The notes beneath the pieces are model-generated. The model was not told where the DNA came from. It saw only the letters and a list, made by a program, of their open reading frames with translations, and searched no databases. Position numbers and translations under genes: made by a program. A stretch of 64,000 bases of DNA from a virus: UHGV virus genome UHGV-1963645, one strand, 5' to 3'. Of the stretch, positions 1-53,446 are shown piece after piece; the first letter of the stretch is position 1, and the number at the start of each line of letters is the position of its first letter.

Positions 1-617
1 GCTTCATTTGTGTCCACGATCTTAGACATGCGTGCAGCGCCGCGCTCTGTCCAGAGTGTAAGGCTTCTGGCGTTCTTACCAACAGAGTAACTTCCGGTTA
101 CTCTGTTCTTAAATTCTCTTAATTTTAAACCAGTTAGAAGAAAGTAATGCTTACCTTCTTCAAAGCGGTCAAGGTTGCGAGACAAATTGTTGCGAATATT
201 GGCTTCATCGACCCCATACCCTCTAGCAAGAGTTTCGGTTGTCACGACACGTACTCCCTGCCATTCCAGAACGGGAATTTCATCCGGCTGATTCTGAACA
301 ACCACCAGTTCCGATTCCTGAACTGAAGGTGCATAAATTTTTTCTGATTTAACGTTAGTTGCTTTCATTCTGTGTGCCTCCTTGCGTGCTTCGGCTGCGA
401 CGGTTGCGTAATTCAGATGACCCTGTTCGAGCAGGTATTCACGGATATCGGTTAGCAGAATGCGGTGAACCGCGTGTTTGTCCTTTCTCCGGTAAAGTTG
501 TTTGGTGATCATGAAGTAGTTGGCAATAACGCCCGGTATATCCCTGGTACTGATACAGGCAGTGTGCTGTTCAATTGCCTCGATCATCTCTTCACGGGTG
601 ACTAATGACGTTCTCAT
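1..617 (-). CDS. ant: Antirepressor-like protein, N-terminal part (gene continues past the left edge of the window)
   Basis: Minus-strand reading frame with no stop to position 1; ATG near 617 preceded by AGGAGGG; N-terminus MRTSLVTREEMIEAIEQHTAC... is clearly paralogous to the 345-aa ORF at 49735-50772; start overlaps icd stop as in immI operons. Confidence 0.7.
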   Translation of the reverse strand, partial: MRTSLVTREEMIEAIEQHTACISTRDIPGVIANYFMITKQLYRRKDKHAVHRILLTDIREYLLEQGHLNYATVAAEARKEAHRMKATNVKSEKIYAPSVQESELVVVQNQPDEIPVLEWQGVRVVTTETLARGYGVDEANIRNNLSRNLDRFEEGKHYFLLTGLKLREFKNRVTGSYSVGKNARSLTLWTERGAARMSKIVDTNE

Positions 618-835
618 AGTCCCTCCTGAGCAGAAGCGTTAACAGGGAGGCACCAGTAACTGAGAGAATTGCGCGAATCGATAGAAAAGCGGGCAGAGAA
701 AATACAGGGAGCATCCGGAAGCTGAGAACGTGCCTCATCTTCTGTCGGTGCAATAACGAAGTGATAGTGACGTTTTTGGCAGGAGTAAAAGCGCCAGATA
801 AATTCAGAATGAGCAGGGGTAGGGATAGTAGCCAC
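614..835 (-). CDS. icd: Icd-like small protein (73 aa) translationally coupled to ant
   Basis: 73-aa ORF (apparent GTG start) preceded by AAGGAGG; 4-nt overlap with ant start; near-identical second copy at 50769-50990. Confidence 0.6.
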   Translation of the reverse strand: MATIPTPAHSEFIWRFYSCQKRHYHFVIAPTEDEARSQLPDAPCIFSARFSIDSRNSLSYWCLPVNASAQEGL

Positions 836-899
836 AATGGCAGCCTCCTTTTGCTAATTTAAGGAGCTACCGCGTGAGGTCTCAATCTCAATGGCGGTA

Positions 900-1010
900 G
901 CACTGACTGGGTTGAGACTACCGGCGCAAAAGGGAACCGGCCTGCCTTTCGGCAGCCCAGCCAGCACTACCATTGATCTCTGAGCTAAACGCTACGTATG
1001 GCTGTGCGAT
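900..1010 (-). ncRNA. c4: c4-like antisense regulatory RNA (approximate boundaries)
   Basis: ORF-free leader upstream of icd with long-range complementarity (GGTAGCACTGACTGGG vs CCCAGCCAGCACTACC) and an internal element complementary to repeats upstream and at the icd RBS; same architecture at 51055-51165. Confidence 0.4.
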
Positions 1011-1018
1011 GGCATGAC

Positions 1019-1048
1019 ACAAAAAAAGACGCTTTTGGCGTCTGTGTC
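1019..1048 (-). terminator. Intrinsic-terminator-like hairpin plus U-run (minus strand)
   Basis: Minus strand reads AGACGCCAAAAGCGTCT followed by TTTTTTT; 150 nt downstream of pacB stop; conserved in second immI copy at 51172-51200. Confidence 0.35.
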
Positions 1049-1175
1049 GCCTTTTGCATTATCCGGGGTCTCAATCCCGGCACCCGTTTTAATGAGGTGC
1101 CTGATAAGCATAAACCGAAAATGCCTCAAGGCGCAAGAGGTCAGGTTCAATGTAACATCGGTAGTTAAAAAACAC

Positions 1176-1192
1176 AATTTATTAGAGCAAAT
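1176..1192. promoter_or_regulatory. C1-repressor operator-like site
   Basis: AATTTATTAGAGCAAAT, about 14/17 match to reverse complement of ATTGCTCTAATAAATTT (recalled P1 C1 operator consensus). Confidence 0.5.
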
Positions 1193-1194
1193 AT

Positions 1195-2679
1195 TCATTC
1201 GTTAAGCCATGCCAGAGCTTCATCAACCTGCGCTTCGTCTTCGACGCTAAGCACTTCATCCTGGGGAACATAATCCGCCAGCATAGCGAAACAATATGTA
1301 TCCCAATGGTCTGGTGAGTGCAGGTTGAGTTTTTTCTTCATATCCTCCTTACTCATCACCTTCCATTGACCTGCGGAGTTAATCCCTACAGGGATTTTCG
1401 ACGCTTCCTCAATAGTTTCATTACCCTTATCCAGTCTCATACGACCAGATTTTACGGCCTCTGCGGCTTGAACGTTGGCATAAGCACGTTTATCAAAGTA
1501 CAGGCTCTTATCTTCACGGCTATGCATCTTTTTACCCCAGCGTATACGCTGTACGGTAATACCATAATACTCGTACATCAGATCCGCCGTTGCTTTACCC
1601 AGGCCATCGCCGTCTATCGCTATGGTGATATTTGGGAATCGCTCAGGATTACATTCTGCGAAAATTTTGGCGGCAAGCTGCGTTTCTGTAACGTCTGTGT
1701 ATTCCAGCATTCGATAGTTGATTACACGGCGTTTATTTCGCTGGCCGGACACCATCATGATATTGATAACGGACTTATCCCGTCCCGTACCACCAGCAAC
1801 GTCCACACATGCAAGCCAGCCCCATCCTTTTGCAATCTTGACTTTCCGCCGCGTTGCACGTTCAACCTCATCACGTCCAAGAAGGAAGCCATCCTGTGAT
1901 TTAGGGAATAGGCCGCGTACCTTAATCATGTACATAGGGTTATCACGCCCGCCGTACTCCGCCAGCTTCATTTTGATAAATGCTGGCGTTACCAACGGTG
2001 ATTCCTCACTGTTAAGCGTGATCGCCGTATAAACGCCATCAGGGTTACCAGGACGCTTGGCCAGTTTATGGTGTGTATCGTAGAAATAGCCGCTTGGGCG
2101 TGTAGGCTGTGACAGCAATAAGATGCGGTTATCCTGTCCGGTAAGAGCACCGGTGATGATACCGAAAGCTCTATCACTGACACCGGAGGCTTCATCGATA
2201 ATATACAGAAGATGATCTGCGTGTTCACCGGCGAGAGCTTCTTCACTTCCCAGACGAAAGCCCTTCGGTACTACAGTCCATACACCTTTACCAGTAATCT
2301 CATAGAAAGCGGTTTCTGTCAGAACAAAATAATCAGCAAGCCATGGGAAACGGCTGGGGGCAGTAGCCCAGTTTATCTTGATGTACTTGAATATACCGGT
2401 CATTACCTGCTGAATTTTGTTCGCAACGATAATGGCACGGGCACCTGGATACATGATTATGAACAACATGATCATGATAGAAGTCATGTCTGATTTCCCG
2501 GTACCGTGACCAGACGAAACAGATGTCTTGCTACCCTGTTCCTGCACAGACTCAATAATCAGATCCTGCTGCCAGGTAGGTGTTTTGCCGAACAAAACAT
2601 CAGCGGCAGCAATCCAGTCATAACGATATAGCGCCACCAGCTCGCGCCAACGTGGATCCGTTACGCAACTTCTGGCCAT
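1195..2679 (-). CDS. pacB: Terminase large subunit PacB-like
   Basis: 494-aa ORF directly downstream of pacA with ATGA overlap; size and position match P1 pacB. Confidence 0.85.
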
Positions 2680-3872
2680 TAATCATCATCCCCGTATAGC
2701 TTGCGGGTAACTTCTTCGTCTTCCTCCTCGTCTTCGTCCAGGTCTTGTTCCAGCCATGGGTCGTTTGATACACCTTCAGTATCAACATCTCCATAACCGC
2801 CTGTATCAACGATATCGGCGATTTCTTCCCTACGCTGCTCAATCCACAATGCGGCATCGGCGCGGCGGTTGGCGGCCCGTTCTCGCGCAACTTTGTCCAG
2901 ATCTTCAAGAGAAGGGCCACCGACGGCTGTTTGCCTTTCCTCATCATCGGTATTGGTCTTAGGAGCACGCAGATCGGCTTTGATTTGCTCCAGCATCAGG
3001 GGCGGCACTTTTCCGCCATGCGCCTCGATGAATTCAGCTGCTTCCAGCACTGACCAGTTATTTTCACGCTTTCGTTCGTATGCCAGCTTAACAATGCCAG
3101 CTTGCCCCATAGATAAAGCGTGCTTTTCCGCCTCCCGGCTTTCTTTTCGATAGTTATTCCGGATGCTGTAAATGGTGTTGATCAGGCTGCTTATCTGCGC
3201 GGAACAGCTGTTTAGCATGCTCGCGATACGATATTCAGGCGGAGTCCCTTCATCATCGTCTTTTTGCTGATCGCGCATTTCCTGCACCAGACGAATACAC
3301 GTATCCCTGGCATTCTCCAGCATAAGGAGATGAGAAAGAGACTTTTCCAGAAGAGTGGTTTCCAGAACATCGGCCCCGGACCGACGCAACATAGCGCGCG
3401 CAGCCTTCCGCGCTTCAACGTTATCTATCAGGTAATCGCCAGCTTCGAATTCAAAGCGTTCACCATCATCATCCAGGGTGTCGCGTTCCAGGCGATCACG
3501 TAAGGTCCGGTGGGCGCGGGTGATCACGTCATGATCATCAGAACGATCATTTATGCGCTTATTTTGGCGCTTCGCATTCTCGACTGCGGCACTGACAACG
3601 GCATTAACCCTTTGTTTTTCCGCTATTTCAGCCGCAATGTGATCACCTGCATGTTGATCATTAGAGTGATCAATGATCATGCTTTTTAGTGGCTTCCTGA
3701 CTGGCTTATTTGGCTTGCGGCTGTCCGCTGTCCTGGTGTCTTCTTTGAAGGCACGGAGATAACGACGTGCAGTATTAGGGTTAAGATTAAACTCGGCGGC
3801 ATACTGTGCGATGGTGTAACCACCATCTCGCGCCAGGCGAGCAAAATTCTTCTTGTGATCGTCCCAGGTCAC
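2679..3872 (-). CDS. pacA: Terminase small subunit / pac-recognition protein PacA-like
   Basis: 397-aa ORF containing the clustered TGATCA/G hexamers characteristic of the P1 pac site within its coding sequence. Confidence 0.85.
3521..3682. other. pac packaging site (two clusters of TGATCA-type hexamers with embedded GATC)
   Basis: gtGATCAcgtcaTGATCAtcagaacGATCA at 3521-3550 and TGATCAcctgcatgtTGATCAttagagTGATCAaTGATCA at 3640-3680. Confidence 0.75.
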
Positions 3873-3957
3873 TTATGCTTCCTTTCGTAAAAACTCTTTT
3901 TGACGCGAGGGTAACGAAAGTCACATGTCAAAAGGCCCGGAACGGGCAAGCAATCAA

Positions 3958-4410
3958 TCAGATACGTGCGGATGTGGCATTACCGTAATGACGGTGCTGA
4001 CGGGCCACCTTATTGAAAAGTTGACGCGCCATTACCCAAGGCTGGTGCTCCCGGCGTTCCTTTTCGTCCTGCGTCATATAGAGTTCGTTCTGGAGTTTTT
4101 CATCAAACCGGCGCGGAGCGCGGCTACGGCGAAAGAATTCAGGATTCAGAGAGTGGATCTGAAATCTACGTGGGCGTGTACTGTCATCAATCAAAACAGA
4201 CGAATACTTAGACACAGCGATAGCCTTTAAGCGCAGATAAACATCGCGCTTATCGACATCCAGATGCGGGTATTCCTTTTCAAGAATTGCTGCGAGTTCT
4301 TTCGCTGATAGAAGAGATTTAGTGCGGATCATGTAATCCGCAATCTCGTACGATGTTATTCGTGAGTGATTTATTTCCATGAAGTGGCGTCCCTGCCAGT
4401 TAAGTAACAT
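3958..4410 (-). CDS. lpa: Late promoter activator Lpa-like
   Basis: 150-aa ORF immediately upstream of pacA in the position of P1 lpa; operator-like site upstream at 4481-4497. Confidence 0.55.
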   Translation of the reverse strand: MLLNWQGRHFMEINHSRITSYEIADYMIRTKSLLSAKELAAILEKEYPHLDVDKRDVYLRLKAIAVSKYSSVLIDDSTRPRRFQIHSLNPEFFRRSRAPRRFDEKLQNELYMTQDEKERREHQPWVMARQLFNKVARQHRHYGNATSARI

Positions 4411-4498
4411 CCTGTCACCTACTGATTAGCCCATGTCAACTAATCAACGTGGAATATAATACCCTCGATTAAAGAAATAGCAATACATTAGAGCAATT

Positions 4499-5542
4499 TT
4501 ATCTAACGCTCGACGAGTGACTTGTGATAGCGCCGACTCCAAGCGCGTAATCAAAGAACAATCGTTGATGCATCGCCAGCCTACCGTGCGTCTTCTCCCA
4601 ATTATCGCGGTCACGCTCAATATCACGCTGGCATGACTGGCACAGAGGAATTGCGTAAATGTCATGCGCGCATAATCGACTATGACGAACGATATAAGGC
4701 GTAATGTGAGCGCCAGCTCCCGCCGCTCCACACCCACAGCATGGACGGGAAGCAACAAAGTCCATGTACTCAGGTAATTTTAGCGATTGCAGTTTTGGTA
4801 TTTTGAAATGCGCCATGCCAGGGTCGGAGTCAACATCCACAGGGCATACTTTTGCACGCATCGGCGCGGCGCGTTCTTCCATCATCTGAACATATGCTGT
4901 AGCGCGATCGTCATACGGGCGAATATCCGCCTCTTTCAGAGGTCCGCTATCCTGCGTTGCGGCTTTCATCTTATTTATTGATATACGGCAAACTTCTTCC
5001 GGCATCAGGTGCATCATGTTGCGCATGAAAGCCCACCAGCACAGTTCCTGAATACTTAAATCATGGCCATCTGAAAGCCCCATTTCCTGACGGGCGACAT
5101 CCAGTATCCAGTTAACGCGATTATTATGCAGCGTTTCTTTCAGCTCATTAAAACCACGCATCCGGTAATGGTTATCGTGATGCCAGCACAACAACACCGC
5201 GCTATTGTCTCGTTCTGCGTGGACAATATGGTTGTCACACCAGCTACGATCTGCGGCCTGGCATTGCCCCTCTTTCCTGCGCAACCACGCCACCAGCGCG
5301 TCAATTCCACCAATACGGCGAAACAGTTCATCGCTGTTAAAAAACGGCTGCAACGCCTCATTTGTTGCCATAGTTTGCTCGGAAACAACGAGGCCGTCGT
5401 CCATGTGCTCGATTAACTCACGCGGCACCGGCTCCATAATAAATTTACGGCCAGCCTCCACCAGCTTTCTGACTTCCTGATCCACTTTGAATGTGGCGAC
5501 GCCAAGCTCTTTTTGTACAAAGGGAGTAATTATGGCTTTCAC
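4499..5542 (-). CDS. pdcB: PdcB-like protein (Cys/His-rich C-terminus)
   Basis: 347-aa ORF between the doc-phd operon and lpa; CCGCG...H...C..C motif cluster near C-terminus. Confidence 0.5.
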
Positions 5543-14471: not shown

Positions 14472-14488
14472 AGATTTATTAGAGCAAT
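14472..14488. promoter_or_regulatory. C1-operator-like site
   Basis: AGATTTATTAGAGCAAT, 16/17 to reverse complement of ATTGCTCTAATAAATTT. Confidence 0.55.
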
Positions 14489-20180: not shown

Positions 20181-20326
20181 TTTTGTTTCCTCGTGAAGAA
20201 CCTACTTAAGGGCAGAATGATACATTTCACAATCTAAATTGCACTAATAATTTTCTTTTATTGAGTTAAATATTCAACAAATGACTAGCGATAGAATCAC
20301 CATCATCTATTTCTGGCAGGCTGACT

Positions 20327-46820: not shown

Positions 46821-47417
46821 ATGGCTGTGATTCCAATGTCGTACTCCCCGGGTACTGTCGCTCGTCGATTTTCGATCCTGGACGGAGTTACCATCCAGGG
46901 TGTGCTTTACCAGGTTATATGGGATTCCAAAACCCCATTTGCAGCTGTAATAGAGGCTGCGCCTTCTGTTATCGATGGTGATATGCGGCATAAGGTTGTC
47001 GCTACTCTTGAACTTCAACGTCGCCCGCAGCTTGAAGGCGTACTGGTAAGGAAGTTCTGGGAGGATAGCGATGTTGCCCAGATTGAAGGTATCGTGGTTG
47101 ATGGAACTGTCCGGGATGTCGGTTTAGCTACTTTTGTTTACGAAACCGTAGCCTCAAAAGCTGGTGTTGTTTTGCTCAGTGATAATGAGCAATACGAAGG
47201 TGGAAAAGCTCTTTGGCAACATATCGCCCGTCGCTCTTCCGAGCTAAAAGTGTTTATCCTCGACACCGATGCCGCTCAGTATTACCCGTTTGACGGCGAA
47301 CGTGTTTGCTATGACGGGGTAAGTATTCCTGAATCCGAGATATGGAGTGAACACCCAGATCGAAGTAAGCATGGGGTTGTTCTGGTCGCTGAATCCATAA
47401 TTGGAAATGCGGCATAG
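46821..47417 (+). CDS. Hypothetical protein
   Basis: Start at ATG after AAGGGGG RBS. Confidence 0.5.
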   Translation: MAVIPMSYSPGTVARRFSILDGVTIQGVLYQVIWDSKTPFAAVIEAAPSVIDGDMRHKVVATLELQRRPQLEGVLVRKFWEDSDVAQIEGIVVDGTVRDVGLATFVYETVASKAGVVLLSDNEQYEGGKALWQHIARRSSELKVFILDTDAAQYYPFDGERVCYDGVSIPESEIWSEHPDRSKHGVVLVAESIIGNAA

Positions 47418-47599
47418 CAGTAAAAAATTCCTTGCTCCTTAAAATGGGAGAGGGTTAATCTACGTATGCTAAGCATAGATATGGCCTCAGATTAATGTTA
47501 AGCGTCTTGCAGGACGCGTAATGTTATCTGGGGCTTTCTTCTATCTGCTTTTCGGGTAATGCCTGAAGCAGATAGCCTCAAGCACCCGCAACGATTGTA

Positions 47600-47926
47600 T
47601 CAATGTCTGGCTTTTTTTCTATAGAAATCACCTGGAAGGGTGAATATCCACATCAGAAGAAATGTAGCAGCAAACATGATCCCTAATGGCCAGACCGCGC
47701 CAAAGAAAATCCATACTAAGATCTCCTCTGCTCGTTCTTTGCGGTCGATATCGACAAGCATTTTTCGGCTGATCATGTATACACAGAAGCCAATACAAAC
47801 ATATCCTGCAAAAGCGATCGCTAACTGTAAAAAATCAGATTGCATCTCCGACCTCAAACTGAAAACGCCAGGTGACTCCAGATTAGAGCAATCTATCACC
47901 CTCTGAATCCTGCCGGTATACCCCAT
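47600..47926 (-). CDS. Small membrane protein downstream of repL
   Basis: Hydrophobic 2-3 TM ORF; start uncertain. Confidence 0.3.
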   Translation of the reverse strand: MGYTGRIQRVIDCSNLESPGVFSLRSEMQSDFLQLAIAFAGYVCIGFCVYMISRKMLVDIDRKERAEEILVWIFFGAVWPLGIMFAATFLLMWIFTLPGDFYRKKARH

Positions 47927-48741
47927 TGTTCGTTATCTTTATTTTTGGCTAAAACCGCATTAAGAGCTTCGTTTACCGTCATGCAATGCGGCAGATTATC
48001 GAAGTTTGATACCCCGCCAATATCAGGAGAACGCTTGTTCTTCAGGTAAGCATATTTCCGCGCTGCCGCCTCTACTTTCTGCTTGAACTCATGTTTTTGA
48101 GCGCGTTTTTTGGATAACCGCAGATTGTCAGCCTTTGCTTTTGCCTCAGCGATCCATGAAGTCAATTTTTTGAGTCTGGTCGTTCCGGCACCGCCGGAAA
48201 CTGATCTTTTTGTTTTTTTAACTTGTGACTTCTTATTCTTTATTGCCACGTCATCCTGACAGGGGGAGGGGGTATCATTTTGACATGGGGGTGTGGATAA
48301 AAAATTAAATAAAGCCAATGTCTTAGCGAGAACAGCTTTAACCTTGGTTGCCGCTGAAGAGATCTTTAATTTGCTTTCAATCAGCGCATTTTTGGCTTGT
48401 TGTGCGAAGGCCAAAAAGGATGGTGTAAACCGGTACAGGTTAGCACGACGTTCATGGTGATCGCCGATAACAATCTCTACAGACAGAATTCCTTTGTTTA
48501 CAGCTTCACGGAATGCACGAACGACGGTTGATTGGCTATAACCAGTTTCTGCCGCGATCAGGCGGTGAGGCTTGTGAATGAAGTATTCACTGGTTGTTGC
48601 CGCTAGATTTGCACATTGCGACAGGATATGCCCGGCGCTACGAGATAGACCGGAGTGTGTTACAAAGCAGGCCAATTCATAGCCAGAAAAAGTAAAATCG
48701 CTCATCGTTATACAGCTCAGGAAAGTGACTTTAGCCAGCAT
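47896..48741 (-). CDS. repL: Lytic replication initiator RepL
   Basis: 281-aa ORF downstream of kilA; HTH-like segment SQSTVVRAFREAVNKGIL. Confidence 0.8.
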   Translation of the reverse strand: MLAKVTFLSCITMSDFTFSGYELACFVTHSGLSRSAGHILSQCANLAATTSEYFIHKPHRLIAAETGYSQSTVVRAFREAVNKGILSVEIVIGDHHERRANLYRFTPSFLAFAQQAKNALIESKLKISSAATKVKAVLAKTLALFNFLSTPPCQNDTPSPCQDDVAIKNKKSQVKKTKRSVSGGAGTTRLKKLTSWIAEAKAKADNLRLSKKRAQKHEFKQKVEAAARKYAYLKNKRSPDIGGVSNFDNLPHCMTVNEALNAVLAKNKDNEQWGIPAGFRG

Positions 48742-48770: not shown

Positions 48771-49571
48771 TTAGCGCGTTGCCGCGACAGGTACCAGCAC
48801 ACCAGCATCAAGCAATCGCTTCATCAGCCACTGCTGACCTTTGCCGGTTATACGAGTCGTGAAAGAAATCCTGCTTCCATTGCTTGTATCGATCACGGTT
48901 TCTTTAAGGGTGAAATACCCACGGGATATGTATTCTTGTTTGGGGACGTTCCTGCGTTCACCGGTTGCGATCAGAATTCCGTTATCACGCAACCAGGTGA
49001 AGAGATAGTTTTGGCCCAGGCCGAGCACTTTGGCATAGTTGCCGATTAGAACCCCGCTGGCGGTAGCAACGCGTTCGGCGAATTCGACTTTAGGCGCATC
49101 CATAAGCATTTTTTGCTCCAGCCGTTGCTTTTGCTCTGCCAGGTCGGCAGCCAAACGGAGAGCTTCAGGGAGACTCTGCGGAATAGCAGGTTGTAATCTT
49201 CCGGCTCGATAGTCGATAAATGTCTGGTTTACCTTCAGCCGAAACGCGGGAGAAATCCAGCCTGCGTACTCCACAGCGAGCAATTCATGGGCAAACGTAC
49301 CGCCGCCACGGCCTTCGAACGAAACTATGCAATTCTGCATAGTTTCTTTTTCAAGCTCTTCGATAAGCTGTTTGGCTGACAGCGTTCTTAGCCATTGAGC
49401 TGGCGCTTTATGGGCACCGAGTCCGCTCGCTCTGTGTAGAGCATTAAGGTTGTAACGGCCAGCGCGGTCGGTCGTAATTTCAACACCACAAATAACAGGC
49501 AGAGTGGTTGAAGGATCGACATTTTGATGAAGGTTTGATATATTCATATCCGCATTGAATGTTTGTTGCAT
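48771..49571 (-). CDS. kilA: KilA (KilA-N domain plus antirepressor-like C-terminal domain)
   Basis: 266-aa ORF; C-terminal half paralogous to C-terminus of the ant ORF; first gene after the operator at 49641. Confidence 0.75.
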   Translation of the reverse strand: MQQTFNADMNISNLHQNVDPSTTLPVICGVEITTDRAGRYNLNALHRASGLGAHKAPAQWLRTLSAKQLIEELEKETMQNCIVSFEGRGGGTFAHELLAVEYAGWISPAFRLKVNQTFIDYRAGRLQPAIPQSLPEALRLAADLAEQKQRLEQKMLMDAPKVEFAERVATASGVLIGNYAKVLGLGQNYLFTWLRDNGILIATGERRNVPKQEYISRGYFTLKETVIDTSNGSRISFTTRITGKGQQWLMKRLLDAGVLVPVAATR

Positions 49572-49640: not shown

Positions 49641-49657
49641 AAATTTATTAGAGCAAA
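49641..49657. promoter_or_regulatory. C1-operator-like site heading the kilA-repL operon (Op53-like)
   Basis: AAATTTATTAGAGCAAA, 15/17 to reverse complement of consensus. Confidence 0.65.
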
Positions 49658-49734: not shown

Positions 49735-50772
49735 TTAACCTATTGCTACTGGTTTTAACAAACCAGCATCAAGTAGCTTGCGAGTTAACCACTGCTGGCC
49801 TTTACCCGTTAATTGGGGCGTCAGCCGTATCTGGTAGCCATTTTCATCATCCAGCACCACTTCTTTCACCGTGAAATACCCGGCGTTAATGTACTGCTGG
49901 CGCGGTACGTTTTTGCGCGCACCAAAAGCCATGAGAATGCCGTTCTGGCGCAACCATGAGAAAAGGGCGTTTTGCTTAAGTCCAACGACCTTTGCAAAGT
50001 TCCCGATCAGGATTCCATTGGCCACTGATACCCGGTCGGCAAAATCGACTTTAGGGGCTGCGGCCACCAGCTGTTGTTCCAACTGCATTTTCTGTTCTGC
50101 TAACTCGGCAGCCAGGCGTAGGGCTTCTGGTAATGTCTGGGGGATCGATGGGGTAGGGGAGTTTGCCTGCTGTAATTCTTCCAGTTTGTCGATCAGCGAA
50201 CGGCGGACCGCTTTTGACTCGCGCGCGGCGACTCGCAGGGCTTGTTTGAAAGTCATGGTTATGACAAGCATTGATGTTTTGTTCATTTTTTCCACTACAC
50301 TTTTTGTGTAGTGCTCACCATCAAGCTCATCGAGTATTTTTTCGATGAATTTGTTGTTCCGAACCTCTGGTTCCCCACATAACTTACGCGCTTCATTGAC
50401 CATCTTTAACAGTGTCTGGCTGTCGATTGTGTCTCCAGTGTTGGAGATAACATTCACAGCTGGTGATGGCGTAGCTGAAGCAACAGGTGCTGTTTTTTCA
50501 ACATTTAAATTATTACCGGTCATTCTATGTGCCTCCTTTCTCATTTCTGCTGCCACTGTTGCGTAACGTAGACGTCCTTGTTCAATCAAATAATCCCTGA
50601 TCTCGGCTATCAGTAGCCTGTTGATCACAGCCTTATCTGTTCGGGTATAAAAACGTCTGGTTATCATGAAATAGTTAGCAATTGCGCCGGGGATCTCCCG
50701 TGTCGGCATACAGGCAGTATGCAAGGCGATCGCTTCGGCTATTTCATTACGGGTGACGAGAGGTGTTTTCAT
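49735..50772 (-). CDS. ant: Antirepressor Ant (second copy)
   Basis: 345-aa ORF, N-terminus paralogous to the left-edge ant; overlaps icd stop. Confidence 0.75.
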   Translation of the reverse strand: MKTPLVTRNEIAEAIALHTACMPTREIPGAIANYFMITRRFYTRTDKAVINRLLIAEIRDYLIEQGRLRYATVAAEMRKEAHRMTGNNLNVEKTAPVASATPSPAVNVISNTGDTIDSQTLLKMVNEARKLCGEPEVRNNKFIEKILDELDGEHYTKSVVEKMNKTSMLVITMTFKQALRVAARESKAVRRSLIDKLEELQQANSPTPSIPQTLPEALRLAAELAEQKMQLEQQLVAAAPKVDFADRVSVANGILIGNFAKVVGLKQNALFSWLRQNGILMAFGARKNVPRQQYINAGYFTVKEVVLDDENGYQIRLTPQLTGKGQQWLTRKLLDAGLLKPVAIG

Positions 50773-50990
50773 AAACCCCCCTGAACGTCGGCAGAGAAGG
50801 GGAGGCTCCAGTAACTAAGTGAATTGCGCGAGTTAGTTGAAAAACGGGCAGTAAAAATGCAGGGGCCATCAGGCAATTGAGAGCGTGCTTCGTCTTCTGT
50901 TGCTGCGATAACGAAGTGATAGTGGTGTTTTTGGCAGGAGTAAAAGCGCCAGATAAATTCAGGATGAGTAGGGGTAGGGATAGTAGCCAC
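50769..50990 (-). CDS. icd: Icd-like protein (second copy)
   Basis: 73-aa ORF near-identical to 614-835 copy. Confidence 0.65.
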   Translation of the reverse strand: MATIPTPTHPEFIWRFYSCQKHHYHFVIAATEDEARSQLPDGPCIFTARFSTNSRNSLSYWSLPFSADVQGGL

Positions 50991-51054
50991 AATGGCAGCC
51001 TCCTTTTGCTAATTTAAGGAGCTACCGCGTGAGGTTCCAATCTCAATGGCGGTA

Positions 51055-51165
51055 GCACTGACTGGGTTGGAACTACCGGCGCAAAAGGGAACCGGCCTGC
51101 CTTTCGGCAGCCCAGCCAGCACTACCATTGATCTCGGAGCTATGTGCTACGTATGGTTGTGCGAT
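51055..51165 (-). ncRNA. c4: c4-like antisense RNA (second copy, different predicted specificity)
   Basis: Same architecture as 900-1010 with paired substitutions GGTCTCAA->GGTTCCAA and TTGAGACT->TTGGAACT. Confidence 0.4.
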
Positions 51166-51487
51166 GGCATGACACAAAAAAAGACGCTTTTGGCGTCTAT
51201 GTCGCCTTTTGCATTATCCGGGGTTCCAATCCCGGCATCCGTTTTACTAAGATGCCTGTTTAGGATAAACCGAAAATGCATTAGCACGCAAGCAAGTTAA
51301 TGTAGCATATGAAGCTAAAAAAATAAAATAATTAGAGCAACTTGCAACCATGTAAATTATTTCTCTGGTAACTAAAATGTATGAGTTTAATTGATATGGG
51401 TCAAAGATTTTGACCATTGCATGGTGAAACTTTATGCTACAAAATGTTATTTTAAGGCGTTTTATCTGTGGCAGGAGATAGTTAATC

Positions 51488-51838
51488 ATGTCATCTGAAC
51501 ATGTTCGTAAAGGTGTAACAAATGCGAAATTCAATGAAGAGCAATCTAATATTCTCTTTATTGAAATAGGAATTCTGTCAATACTGATAGGTTTAATGTC
51601 TAAATCATGGTGGGCCTTTGGCGGTTCTTTTCTTGGACTGATTTTTAGTTTAAGAATAAAATTTCTAGCAATACCATTGATGATTGTATTTAGCTTAGTA
51701 TGGGGAGCTATTGGCTATAGTATTGGTACTTTGTTTGAATCAACAGCAGCAAGTATTGTTTTGGGGGTAATTGCTTTCCTGAGTGGTTTGGGTACTCATT
51801 TTGCTGCCGTGCAATGGGCAAATGATATTGCAGAATAA
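51488..51838 (+). CDS. Small three-TM membrane protein (AT-rich cassette gene 1)
   Basis: 116-aa ORF with three hydrophobic helices; AGGAG RBS. Confidence 0.5.
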   Translation: MSSEHVRKGVTNAKFNEEQSNILFIEIGILSILIGLMSKSWWAFGGSFLGLIFSLRIKFLAIPLMIVFSLVWGAIGYSIGTLFESTAASIVLGVIAFLSGLGTHFAAVQWANDIAE

Positions 51839-51860
51839 TTACAGATAAGAAGCGAAAAGA

Positions 51861-52337
51861 ATGAATATGAGATGGTTTTTATTATTTGTATCGTTAGTTT
51901 CAGCAGGAACATTTGCAAAAATTGATCCTCTACAATGGAATGTAATTGAAGAGAGAGGGGGGAGAGAATATACAATCCATAATCATAATGGTGATAAGAT
52001 AAGTTTTTTATGTGATATGGGATTCATGTATGGTTCACCAGATAGTGCAGGTAGTTTAGGCTTGTTGCTAAGTTCGTCGAATAATAAAAAAGAGTATAAT
52101 GCTGACAAGAATAAAATAGTATTAACTATAGATGGTGATCAATATCCTTTTAGCAATCTTGGATCAATGGTTGGAGATTCTTGGTGGTATGCCTTTTGGC
52201 AAGATGCAGCAGATTCAAATGCTAATATGATTGATGCTTATGTTGATAATGAAAAAATTGCTACATTCCCTCTTTCTGGGCTAAGTAAGTTGTATCAACA
52301 AGCCAAAATGGATGGATGTATTAAACGAGGCAAATGA
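51861..52337 (+). CDS. Secreted/periplasmic protein (AT-rich cassette gene 2)
   Basis: Signal peptide MNMRWFLLFVSLVSAGTFA; 158 aa. Confidence 0.5.
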   Translation: MNMRWFLLFVSLVSAGTFAKIDPLQWNVIEERGGREYTIHNHNGDKISFLCDMGFMYGSPDSAGSLGLLLSSSNNKKEYNADKNKIVLTIDGDQYPFSNLGSMVGDSWWYAFWQDAADSNANMIDAYVDNEKIATFPLSGLSKLYQQAKMDGCIKRGK

Positions 52338-52411
52338 TCTTTCTGTGTTAAAGATTAACGCAATCAATAAAACATTGGTTGCGTAATATTCTATTATAGA
52401 AATGGAATAAT

Positions 52412-53446
52412 ATGACAAAAATTACTAATTCTAATGAGTTGAAGTTGCTGTATAAACAGTCAGTGCTCATTCCATCATACAAAGATCACGTAGCGATCTT
52501 GCAAAAACAATTAGGAATAGAAAAACATTCTTTTCAAAATATGCCAAGATTGAATAGACAAGCTGTAATTAGTAACTCTCTTCGAAAACAATTGGCTAGT
52601 ATACCGAACTTGGCTGGAATAGGCAGCAAGTATCGTGAACATATCGCGATTTTACAGAAACAGACTCAGGCTCTTTTCCCTCATGATGCAAATAGATATA
52701 TTCAAATGCTAAGGAAACAGGCCGAAATAGCTATGCCATTACGAAAACAGCTTGAGGTGCTTAATAAGCAAGCTGGTTTAAATAACATGCAAGCGATACT
52801 TAAAGAATTACAACAAAGTGCAAGTTATAAAATAGATGTAAGCCAAGACATAAAGAAAGTACTAGATCACTATGCTAGAACAAGAAATGCTTCATTACAT
52901 CAAATAATAGAGCAGGGGATTTCATCTATTGCGCAGGCTTATGCTGAAGGTGCTACTGAAACATCACACACCAAAAGTAATGTTCAAAATAAAGGATTAA
53001 ATAAACCTAGCTCAAAGTTTGTTGATTCATTTAAAGAGCTTCCTTATCCACTGCAATGGTTACTAATGGTTATATTTTCTCAAGTTGTGTTTGGTGCTTT
53101 TATTGATTACGGAAAAGAGAAAACCTTGCTGGGAATACACAAGGCAGAATCATATTTTATATCTCTGTTTGAGGATAAACCAATATCAAAACAACAATTA
53201 ATTAAAGAAAACAAAGAAATTAGTTGGGAAGATCTCAATGGTTTTCGTTTTATAACTGGTGAGAACGTAAGATTACACGTCAGTCCTTCTATAAATAGTG
53301 AGGTGATTGAATGCATTGGCAAAAATACTATAGTGGCTGTTTTAGATAAAAAAGATCGCCAATGGCTTTTCGTGCAGGTTAAATCAGGGGACGAGTTTAT
53401 TACTGGATGGATTACACGAACATACACAAAGCCTCTTAAGGCTTGA
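52412..53446 (+). CDS. Membrane-anchored protein with C-terminal SH3-like domain (AT-rich cassette gene 3)
   Basis: Internal TM (WLLMVIFSQVVFGAFIDY), N-terminal repeats (HVAILQKQ/HIAILQKQ), C-terminal SH3b-like segment. Confidence 0.5.
   Translation: MTKITNSNELKLLYKQSVLIPSYKDHVAILQKQLGIEKHSFQNMPRLNRQAVISNSLRKQLASIPNLAGIGSKYREHIAILQKQTQALFPHDANRYIQMLRKQAEIAMPLRKQLEVLNKQAGLNNMQAILKELQQSASYKIDVSQDIKKVLDHYARTRNASLHQIIEQGISSIAQAYAEGATETSHTKSNVQNKGLNKPSSKFVDSFKELPYPLQWLLMVIFSQVVFGAFIDYGKEKTLLGIHKAESYFISLFEDKPISKQQLIKENKEISWEDLNGFRFITGENVRLHVSPSINSEVIECIGKNTIVAVLDKKDRQWLFVQVKSGDEFITGWITRTYTKPLKA

Follow-up and report, generated by a model that had tools for sequence, protein, structure and literature searches.

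In phage P1, pacB (ending at position 93206) and the convergently transcribed repressor gene c1 (ending at 93231) are separated by a spacer of 24 nt in AF234172, the GenBank annotation of which was used for the P1 facts given here. The initial annotation, which had given this order correctly, drew attention to another arrangement in the DNA analyzed here, a stretch of 64,000 nt of the virus genome UHGV-1963645 (hereafter, the window). The c1 gene was absent from the window, and an operator-like site, c4, icd and ant were reported below pacB. The question is whether c1 (immC) lies further left, past the window, or whether this element has a rearranged immunity architecture.

Organization of the module adjoining pacB

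All of the reported elements were found below pacB where they had been placed, at positions 1-1200 of the minus strand, in the same direction as pacB and pacA. As had also been noted, the largest plus-strand ORF in this interval did not exceed 63 aa in the ORF list. The module consists, in order, of a C1-operator-like site, an IsrK-type leader, a C4 antisense RNA gene, icd and the start of an ant gene (ant'). The following features were located:

2679-3872, minus strand: pacA, upstream co-directional neighbour
1195-2679, minus strand: pacB, upstream co-directional neighbour
1175-1191, minus strand: C1-operator-like site TTTGCTCTAATAAATTG, starting 3 nt past the pacB stop codon
1107-1154, minus strand: two promoter-like elements, aligning with P2c4 and P1c4, promoters mapped in P1
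1022-1100, minus strand: IsrK-type leader RNA (Rfam RF01394, 59 bits; gathering score 50)
890-977, minus strand: gene for the C4 antisense RNA (full-length match, 1-87, to Rfam RF01695; 75.0 bits; gathering score 45)
844-885, minus strand: a2 and b2, the predicted targets of C4 within the 5' UTR of icd, located from motif coordinates
614-835, minus strand: icd, 73 aa, GTG start (NCBIfam NF033153, phage_ICD_like, 2.9e-13)
1-617, minus strand: 5' part of ant', codons 1-205 by translation, running off the left window edge

Most probably, the element has a second, complete antirepressor operon of the P1 immI type, of which positions 1-1200 are the upstream two-thirds, with c1 located just past the left edge.

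The operator-like site TTTGCTCTAATAAATTG deviated at two positions from the consensus of the P1 C1 operator, ATTGCTCTAATAAATTT, and aligned with the annotated P1 operator Oc4 (Op51). Seven sites with at most two mismatches to this consensus were present in the window, compared with 0.01 expected from shuffled sequences. The last 3 nt of the site are shared with a -35-like hexamer, TTGTGT (1172-1177), which forms the first promoter-like element together with an extended -10, TGtTACATT (1149-1154). The second element comprises a -35, TTGCGC (1131-1136), and a -10, TATGCT (1107-1112), separated by 18 nt. Because a strict sigma-70 consensus scan of positions 1-1400 revealed no promoter near the operator, the pacB-side promoters are predicted by homology only. 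The terminator scan found no terminator between pacB and the module.

The leader contains the motifs a1 (UUGAGAC, 1068-1074), located within a hairpin loop, and b1 (GCAAAAGG, 1050-1057). It ends in an intrinsic terminator at 1021-1043, AGACGCCAAAAGCGTCT followed by a T-run, that was detected in the terminator scan. This terminator stands between the promoter and c4, a position that may bear on the yield of C4 RNA. In the C4 RNA, a' (GUCUCAA, 912-918) lies in a single-stranded junction and b' (CCCUUUUGC, 926-934) in a hairpin loop; these labels were taken from the P1 annotation of a2/b2. The target sites are a2 (UUGAGAC, 879-885) and b2 (GCAAAAGG, 847-854), the latter overlapping the icd Shine-Dalgarno sequence AAGGAGG (844-850). 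The leader-c4 precursor folded far better than its shuffles (z = -5.55), and its MFE structure paired a1/b1 with a'/b' in cis.

The small ORFs over the leader and c4 (68, 63, 56, 39 and 30 aa) gave no match in an NCBIfam search and were treated as non-coding. Over the c4 RNA gene, annotation pipelines place an "ash family protein".

The icd stop and the ant' start overlap as ATGA (614-617), and Icd was 79% identical to that of P1. The window part of ant' encodes an N-terminus of the Ant1 type and ORF6N, but not KilAC, which falls beyond the window edge. A putative internal Ant2-like start, M84 (ATG at 366-368), is preceded by AAGGAGG and corresponds in position to the start of Ant2 in P1. Pfam domains were tested in the full-length orthologue from JL22 (370 aa), in which ORF6N (PF10543) covered residues 116-200 (2.5e-18) and KilAC/ANT (PF03374) covered residues 258-359 (1.5e-31).

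Position of c1 in the closest relatives

The window covers approximately two-thirds of a circular genome of approximately 98-100 kb and begins inside ant'. The best match to positions 1-2700 was pS51_2 (99.7%); JL22 was 99.1% identical to positions 1-4500 without gaps, and RCS47 was 97.5% identical to the module region. In the nearest relatives, a 1.7-kb module occupies the place of the pacB-c1 spacer, and c1 follows it in convergent orientation. In JL22 and RCS47, the module starts 3 nt past the pacB stop codon and ends 32 nt before the c1 stop codon, and this 32-nt spacer contains a GC hairpin. The C1 protein of JL22 was identical to that of P1 at 280 of 283 positions. The order pacA-pacB-[operator, c4, icd, ant]-c1-coi-...-cre was found in JL22, RCS47, pS51_2, pB19429_2, pEC13-3 and pMTY10828_p0111. 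Furthermore, c1 followed the module in all 15 IMG/VR loci that reached far enough past it.

The invisibility of c1 within 64 kb would be in favour of its loss or its relocation away from pacB and, with it, of a rearranged immunity architecture, the second possibility raised. This explanation is extremely improbable, given that the window is about two-thirds of a genome cut inside ant', and that c1 directly follows ant' in every relative examined as well as in the 15 far-reaching loci. The c1 stop codon would lie approximately 530 nt past the left edge of the window. The suggestion that immC is located further left, past the window, thus agrees with its position directly after ant' in the closest relatives, and a c1 homolog immediately past the window edge, which the initial annotation had named as refuting its observation, was found by proxy, in relatives 99.1-99.7% identical. 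Of the proposed rearrangement, there remains the insertion of an extra immI-type operon; c1 and the canonical immI are not displaced. By comparison with these genomes, the immunity region appears to have gained one operon, with nothing lost or moved.

Conservation of the module

The state of the module was examined in further copies. In the pacB-side c4 family, a1 was complementary to a' in 46 of 48 modules. Of the 15 full-length IMG/VR modules at the pacB-c1 site, one (L045) had a frameshifted ant' and the other 14 an intact one (370-371 aa), and the central domain of Ant' had diverged to approximately 70% amino-acid identity between variants.

These data bear on the possibility of a functionless immI duplicate, decaying or silent, that was acquired by recombination. 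The module is dispensable, being absent from P1, P7, SJ46 and approximately two-thirds of P1-like plasmids, and the frameshift in L045 and the two modules with a1 mismatched to a' also speak for this possibility. Against this, icd and ant' were both intact in 14 of the 15 full-length copies, and the operator, the Shine-Dalgarno sequence, the ATGA coupling and the internal start were all kept. Moreover, a2 was complementary to a' in 48 of 48 modules across two a' types, a covariation that needs compensatory changes. A functionless duplicate is considered quite unlikely.

Proposed mode of action and possible targets of Ant'

The mode of action proposed for the operon is based on its homology with P1/P7 immI and with IsrK of Gifsy-1. 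Its anatomy, the complementarities and their covariation, the conserved ORFs, the genomic position and the prevalence were observed directly; promoter use, processing, repression and the binding of C1 by Ant' are predictions. In the prophage state, C1 bound at the operator would damp the operator-overlapping promoter, and the second promoter would maintain a low level of transcription. Many transcripts would stop at the leader terminator, and those reading through would be processed with release of C4 RNA. Pairing of a' and b' with a2 and b2, the latter lying over the icd ribosome-binding site, would leave icd untranslated, and because ant' is presumably coupled translationally to icd through the ATGA overlap, no antirepressor would be made. 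C4 could be outrun or titrated if the infected cell had no cognate C4 of its own, or if C1 dropped and the leader RNA with its a1/b1 decoys increased. Icd and Ant', together with a nested Ant2-like form, would then be synthesized, and Ant' would bind and inactivate C1, favouring lytic growth.

It is also conceivable that Ant' acts on something other than C1, namely, on DNA via ORF6N or, like the antirepressors of Gifsy, on repressors encoded by other prophages in the same cell. The central domain of Ant', ORF6N, is unlike the central region of P1 Ant that it replaces, and JL22 and 673R5 carry a Roi annotation for this protein (a Roi-like DNA-binding protein in JL22). In addition, D6 and Stx phages combine the same leader-c4-icd cassette with antirepressors of the unrelated Rha type, which indicates that the effector is exchangeable. 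However, Ant', which is 57% identical to the canonical Ant overall, keeps the Ant1-type N-terminal 84 residues, and its KilAC C-terminal third matches the canonical one at approximately 90% identity. A C1 operator fronts the operon and c1 adjoins it, and ORF6N is likewise present in Ants encoded at the canonical kilA-repL site (L037, L017 and L046). A target other than C1 is accordingly considered unlikely.

The canonical immI operon and the independence of the two C4 RNAs

The same window contains the canonical immI operon, adjoining kilA and repL:

51325-51341, minus strand: operator-like site GTTGCTCTAATTATTTT
51177-51255, minus strand: IsrK-type leader
51045-51132, minus strand: c4, with a' GUUCCAA and b' CCCUUUUGC
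50769-50990, minus strand: icd
49735-50772, minus strand: ant, 345 aa
49735-51341, minus strand: the whole canonical immI
48771-49571 and 47896-48741: kilA and repL, respectively, after the canonical ant

Between the two C4 RNAs of the window, a' is different at 2 nt, for which a1 and a2 carry the corresponding changes, and b' is the same. According to the calculated duplex energies, the canonical C4 would pair weakly with the pacB-side a2 (-2.3 vs -9.1 for the cognate duplex). The pacB-side C4 paired with the canonical a2 at -7.8 kcal/mol, in a shifted register, vs -8.8 for the cognate duplex. For the heteroimmune pair P1/P7, the corresponding a-site values were -9.2/-9.3 for cognate vs -4.1/-6.7 for non-cognate duplexes, and in that pair b differs too. 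The b'/b2 duplex common to both window cassettes (-12.4 kcal/mol) covers the icd ribosome-binding site. Because b' is common and the pacB-side C4 pairs with the canonical a2 in a shifted register, it is doubtful, judging from these predicted duplexes, that the two C4 RNAs would be independent.

The canonical module was 100% identical in four plasmids. The two of these that were examined, pEC13-3 and pMTY10828_p0111, carry a "T"-type c4 at the pacB-c1 site, unlike the window. The cassette pairing of the window was found in pB19429_2, at 99.3% and approximately 92-99% identity.

Specificities of the cassettes across genomes

Three c4 types were found at the pacB-c1 site ("T", 29 modules; D-TCTC, 16; D-TTCC, 7), and the canonical site holds four a'/b' combinations of the P1/P7 family as well as D-TTCC. 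No common specificity was found between modules of one genome in any of the 26 IMG/VR genomes or contigs with at least two recovered modules; the same was true of JL22, RCS47, 673R5, pMTY10828_p0111, pEC13-3, pB19429_2 and the window. However, D-TTCC is the only type present at both sites, and because approximately 0.6 collisions would be expected by chance, as estimated from the type frequencies, the absence of identical pairs is no evidence of selection. Three genomes carry three cassettes each.

It is tentatively suggested, at rather low confidence, that c4-icd-ant cassettes with distinct a'/b' codes, stacked two or three to a P1-like phage-plasmid (canonical, pacB-c1 and beyond c1/cre), work as a multi-lock, multi-key immunity. 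If this is true, each C4 would silence incoming phages of its code, and each Ant would escape prophages lacking that code; the pair in the window would be a minimal natural case, and the a site alone could set specificity.

A related possibility, to which clearly less than an even chance is given, is that related phage-plasmids compete by means of the extra cassette, this being its main role, and not the lysis-lysogeny decision of its own carrier. Its C4 would widen the immunity of the lysogen to phages of the same a/b code, such as D6, the c4 of which has the a' and b' of the pacB-side c4; on superinfection, Ant' would be a second antirepressor, beyond silencing by the different C4 of a resident prophage. 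The heteroimmunity of P1 and P7 has been attributed to c4/ant specificity (PMC6906374; PMC12197685). The variety of specificities, none repeated within a multi-cassette genome, and the genomes with three cassettes are consistent with such a role. On the other hand, the missing identical pairs are uninformative at the collision number estimated above, and the C4 pair of the window has a common b' and the cross-pairing already described. A role in competition would refine the preferred reading, that of a complete immI-type antirepressor operon, and is compatible with it.

Prevalence and prior description

The pacB-c1 module arrangement was found in 243 PLSDB plasmid records and in 240 complete E. 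coli genomes. An ant gene inserted between pacB and c1 was described in pTZ20_1P and RCS47 by Venturini et al. 2019 (PMC6906374), and the insertion in RCS47, pTZ20_1P and JL22 is the same, at the same site, as that in the window. The published account is at the gene level, and the operator, the IsrK-type leader, c4 and its specificity are absent from it (PMC6906374). The c4 of RCS47 has the a' of the pacB-side c4 in the window but a different b' (UUUGAC vs UUUUGC), with b1 matching.

The module is therefore a real, ordinary and already known feature, and cassette stacking with different antisense specificities is its only under-described aspect. For annotation, an apparent anomaly is removed, and what remains is a known accessory insertion, found in about one in three P1-like plasmids. 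Resistance genes in E. coli are commonly carried by P1-like phage-plasmids, and whether these coexist, exclude or induce one another depends on the immI antisense code. Many of these elements contain two or three cassettes of differing code. Both this multiplicity and the "ash family protein" call are relevant to predicting incompatibility and superinfection outcomes. These findings extend a well-understood system without changing it.

Comparison with known systems

The pacB-side module shares with P1/P7 immI a C1 operator over a promoter, a second promoter downstream and upstream copies of a1/b1. The Rfam family of C4, the location of a2 just after c4 and that of b2 on the icd Shine-Dalgarno sequence are also the same, as are the 73-aa Icd, the icd-ant overlap, the Ant1-type N-terminus, the KilAC C-terminus and the nested in-frame Ant2-like start, which is predicted here. 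The map position is different: P1/P7 immI lies between sim and kilA-repL, where the canonical copy at 49735-51341 is found, whereas the pacB-side module has pacB and c1 as its neighbours. Its leader belongs to the IsrK type (RF01394) and contains an intrinsic terminator, whereas that of P1/P7 is of the c4-a1b1 type (RF03163). Moreover, the pacB-side a' and b' differ from those of both P1 and P7, and the ORF6N domain in the center of Ant' sets it apart from P1 Ant.

In phage D6 immI (orf82, antirepressor; orf83, icd), the leader-c4-icd part was 85-95% identical to the window module, and the D6 C4 carries a' GUCUCAA and the same b' as the pacB-side C4. The D6 antirepressor is of the Rha/Roi type and has no significant similarity to Ant', and the genomic context differs. 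D6 was considered as a donor of the whole module and rejected, only leader-c4-icd being similar.

The isrK-orf45-anrP locus of Gifsy-1, a lambdoid prophage of Salmonella, has a leader of the IsrK family, as does the window module. As is predicted for the window module, a terminator there separates a short RNA from a read-through mRNA, and a small ORF is translationally coupled to the antirepressor (PMC4825925). IsrK was described as a trans-activator of orf45/anrP translation, and this action in trans, like Hfq binding, is known from Gifsy-1 only (PMC4825925). The Gifsy-1 locus differs in having no C1 operator, and antisense logic of the C4 type is outside that description. In the second immunity region of P22, immI, a small antisense RNA blocks translation of the antirepressor (PMC12197685). 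This RNA, sar, is cis-encoded over the ant ribosome-binding site and is unrelated to C4 in sequence and structure, and the P22 region has no icd.

Position of c1 and composition of the module

The sequence is that of a P1-like (Punavirus) phage-plasmid, reversed relative to the standard P1 map. The initial annotation gave pacB as followed by the convergent c1 in P1, and this order is correct: the two genes of AF234172 end at 93206 (pacB) and 93231 (c1), 24 nt apart. An immI-like module had been placed downstream of pacB, and every element listed for it was found there, on the minus strand like pacB; likewise, no plus-strand ORF of more than 63 aa was present in 1-1200.

Genes, operator-like site and RNAs of the pacB side (all minus strand)
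3958-4410, lpa
2679-3872, pacA
1195-2679, pacB
1175-1191, C1-operator-like 17-mer TTTGCTCTAATAAATTG, differing from the P1 C1 operator consensus at two positions
1022-1100, IsrK-type leader RNA (Rfam RF01394, 59 bits, gathering score 50)
890-977, full-length C4 antisense RNA (RF01695, 75 bits, gathering score 45)
614-835, icd, 73 aa (NCBIfam phage_ICD_like at 2.9e-13; 79% identical to P1 Icd)
617, start of the antirepressor gene ant', overlapping the icd stop in ATGA; ant' leaves the window at its left edge after 205 codons

Seven C1-operator-like sites with at most two mismatches were found in the window, compared with 0.01 expected from shuffles. Besides the one at 1175-1191, such sites (0-2 mismatches) lay at 14472-14488, 20238-20254, 30656-30683 (an overlapping divergent pair), 34189-34205 and 49641-49657 (the kilA/repL operator). 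At the place of window 854-973 (minus strand), overlying the c4 gene, RefSeq/PGAP calls a 39-aa "ash family protein" CDS in relatives (e.g., pS51_2, 32906-33025). Because this ORF had no NCBIfam match, an RNA gene has probably been called as a protein here, and the call recurs in hundreds of plasmids.

The public sequences closest to window 1-4000 were phage JL22 (99.1% over 1-4500, gapless), plasmid pS51_2 (99.7% over 1-2700) and phage RCS47 (97.5%). In these three, the order was pacA-pacB-[operator, leader, c4, icd, ant']-c1-coi-...-cre, and it was identical in pB19429_2, pEC13-3 and pMTY10828_p0111. The module replaced the P1 pacB-c1 spacer exactly: the operator started 3 nt past the pacB stop, and 32 nt containing a GC-rich hairpin separated the ant' stop from the c1 stop. 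On the coordinates of the window, this predicts a c1 stop approximately 530 nt left of position 1. All 15 IMG/VR loci at the pacB-c1 site that extended far enough carried c1 beyond the module, and C1 of JL22 was identical to P1 C1 at 280 of 283 positions.

Judged from c1 in the relatives and in these 15 loci, immC is predicted to lie beyond the window edge, as one of the two alternatives initially offered had it. The other, a rearranged immunity architecture, did not hold up, since the relatives, serving as a proxy, place c1 just past the edge. The puzzle was an effect of the window boundary. Loss or relocation of c1, which its absence from the window might bring to mind, is extremely improbable given the order in the relatives.

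The canonical immI was unmoved: it occupied 49735-51341 and had its own C4 (51045-51132) and IsrK-type leader, the second of each in the window, with kilA and repL after it. Upstream of it, at 51488-53446 (plus strand), three ORFs of 116, 158 and 344 aa lay where P1 has simABC; the matching place in JL22 and RCS47 is taken by a gene for a putative outer-membrane lipoprotein. A sok antitoxin RNA (RF01794, 97 bits; 47413-47587, minus strand) adjoined repL, so a hok/sok-type module stands beside the lytic replicon. Three tRNA genes (Rfam RF00005, 65-75 bits) were found at 27776-27848, 29852-29924 and 29930-30001 (minus strand).

Prevalence

A query of the module plus pacB was covered to at least 80% in 243 of the 741 matching PLSDB records, and the pacB-module junction occurred in 240 of 679 matching complete E. 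coli genomes (5,426 in the set). The arrangement was absent from P1, P7, SJ46 and phiW39. RefSeq names its genes "host cell division inhibitor Icd-like protein" and "phage antirepressor", and Venturini et al. (PMC6906374) recorded the feature at the gene level, citing RCS47; therefore, it was already known at that level. The literature search found no paper on the operator, leader, c4 or specificity of the module. It is a genuine and, in this group of elements, ordinary feature that databases and one paper already record; less fully described are the regulatory RNA layer and the way in which cassettes that differ in antisense code are stacked.

Regulatory elements

Promoter-like elements were placed by aligning the module with immI of P1 and P7 as annotated. 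Neither pair exceeded the threshold of a consensus promoter scan, and the promoters of the module are therefore assigned by homology. C4 recognition sequences are denoted a' and b'; the names of their target sites follow the P1 annotation, in which a2, directly after c4, has the single-stranded C4 junction as its partner, and b2, on the icd Shine-Dalgarno sequence, has the C4 hairpin loop.

Promoter-like elements and C4 pairing sites of the pacB-side module (minus strand)
1172-1177 and 1149-1154, operator-overlapping -35 TTGTGT and extended -10 TGtTACATT, at a mapped P1 promoter position (homology)
1131-1136 and 1107-1112, TTGCGC and TATGCT, at a mapped P1 promoter position (homology)
1068-1074, a1 UUGAGAC, in the loop of a leader hairpin
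1050-1057, b1 GCAAAAGG
1021-1043, intrinsic terminator
926-934, b' CCCUUUUGC
912-918, a' GUCUCAA
879-885, a2 UUGAGAC
847-854, b2 GCAAAAGG, overlapping the Shine-Dalgarno sequence AAGGAGG (844-850)

The predicted fold of the 280-nt leader-c4 precursor was much more stable than those of shuffled controls (z = -5.55), and its minimum-energy structure paired a1/b1 in cis with a'/b'.

IMG/VR was scanned for three c4 families, and approximately 150 loci were recovered. In the family of both window C4 RNAs, a2 was the exact complement of a' in 48/48 modules and a1 in 46/48. Both the UCUC and the UUCC type of a' kept this complementarity, for which coordinated changes at three places were required. 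In two of the 48, a' and a2 were of one type and the leader a1 of the other, which points to recombination with breakpoints between the leader and c4. In pMTY10828_p0111, the operator, promoter and 5' half of the leader were as in the window, followed by different a1, b1 and c4. Of the 15 full-length IMG/VR copies at the pacB-c1 site, 14 had an intact ant' (370-371 aa). The complementarity and the intact genes speak for a cassette kept functional; that the module is a silent relic is improbable.

The Ant' protein

Full-length Ant' of JL22 (370 aa) consists of three parts and was 57% identical overall to canonical Ant. The N-terminus is of the Ant1 type, with a conserved M84 after AAGGAGG at the P1 Ant2 start position; the centre is an ORF6N domain, whereas P1 Ant has its own central region; the C-terminal third is KilAC, near-identical to that of canonical Ant. 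The central domain differed by approximately 30% between variants at the pacB-c1 site. A target other than C1 could be imagined for such a centre; with the KilAC part so conserved, it seems unlikely. Antirepressor domains are shuffled between the pacB-c1 and canonical sites. At the canonical kilA-repL site, three loci (L017, L030 and L046) encoded antirepressors of 462-469 aa with a P1-type central region plus ORF6N, and one (L037) an ORF6N-type Ant.

Cassette codes

Identity between the pacB-side and canonical cassettes of the window was 86/88 in c4 (97.7%), 96% in the c4-to-icd spacer, 90% in the leader, 81% in icd and 67% in the first 84 codons of ant; codons 85-205 were unrelated. The only two C4 differences lay in a' (GUCUCAA on the pacB side, GUUCCAA in the canonical copy); in each cassette, the same pair of changes recurred in a1 and a2 to match them, and b' was identical. 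Calculated pairing with the cognate a2 was -9.1 kcal/mol for the pacB-side C4 and -8.8 kcal/mol for the canonical C4. Canonical C4 on the pacB-side a2 gave -2.3 kcal/mol, pacB-side C4 on the canonical a2 gave -7.8 kcal/mol in a shifted register, and the b'/b2 duplex common to both gave -12.4 kcal/mol. In the P1/P7 benchmark, the a site gave -9.2/-9.3 kcal/mol (cognate) and -4.1/-6.7 kcal/mol (non-cognate). Therefore, independence of the two cassettes is not settled by sequence alone. The combination was found again in pB19429_2 and hence is not peculiar to the window.

At the pacB-c1 site in IMG/VR, 29 c4 were of the "T" type (a' AGGCCAA), 16 UCUC and 7 UUCC, and the P1/P7 family was never found; the canonical site held four a'/b' combinations of the P1/P7 family and the UUCC type. 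No code was common to two modules in any of 26 IMG/VR genomes or contigs with at least two, or in JL22, RCS47, 673R5, pMTY10828_p0111, pEC13-3, pB19429_2 or the window. Since only one type occurs at both sites, an estimated 0.6 collisions or so would be expected by chance, and their absence is no proof of code avoidance.

In three genomes, another cassette, the third, followed c1 at a distance of a few kb (IMG/VR 2713896909, 2703718869 and 2778261541; loci L039, L133 and L140 with L115, L104 and L053). It was a P1/P7-family cassette whose b' loop differed (..AUGUA..), and it lay inverted on the far side of c1, approximately 6 kb from the pacB-c1 cassette; it echoes the icd-ant homologues near res-mod in pSvP1 (Venturini et al., PMC6906374). 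One locus (L033, IMG/VR 2778261639_000014) had the order pacB - c4 (UUCC) - icd - P1-type ant - kilA - repL. Recombination between the two cassettes, which are direct repeats, would be expected to yield this order and to divide the genome into two circles; the order would equally come from an assembler that had joined the repeats.

Proposed regulation

The sequence features are observed; every regulatory step is proposed by homology with P1/P7 immI and Gifsy-1 IsrK (PMC4825925, PMC12197685). In the prophage, C1 at the operator would limit transcription, and part of the remainder would stop at the leader terminator. C4 would be produced from read-through RNA and block the icd ribosome-binding site by pairing with a2 and b2; no antirepressor would then be made, because ant' translation would depend on that of icd. 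Icd and Ant' would be made on infection of a cell without cognate C4, and also when C1 falls and leader RNA with the a1/b1 decoys builds up; Ant' would then inactivate C1. Late pac-promoter transcripts probably enter the module too, as no terminator was found between pacB and the module.

With fairly high confidence, the module is regarded as a complete, functional second antirepressor operon controlled by C1 and C4, with c1 just past the edge. That the cassette serves mainly in inter-phage competition, as the differing codes of co-resident modules might suggest, is possible, though less likely than not, and is compatible with a C1- and C4-controlled operon. In P1 and P7, the C4 a' sequences (CUGUCAA and CUGCUAA) differ at the same positions as those of the window pair; b' differs as well between P1 and P7, whereas it is identical in the window pair. 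The result is a modest extension of the classical system.
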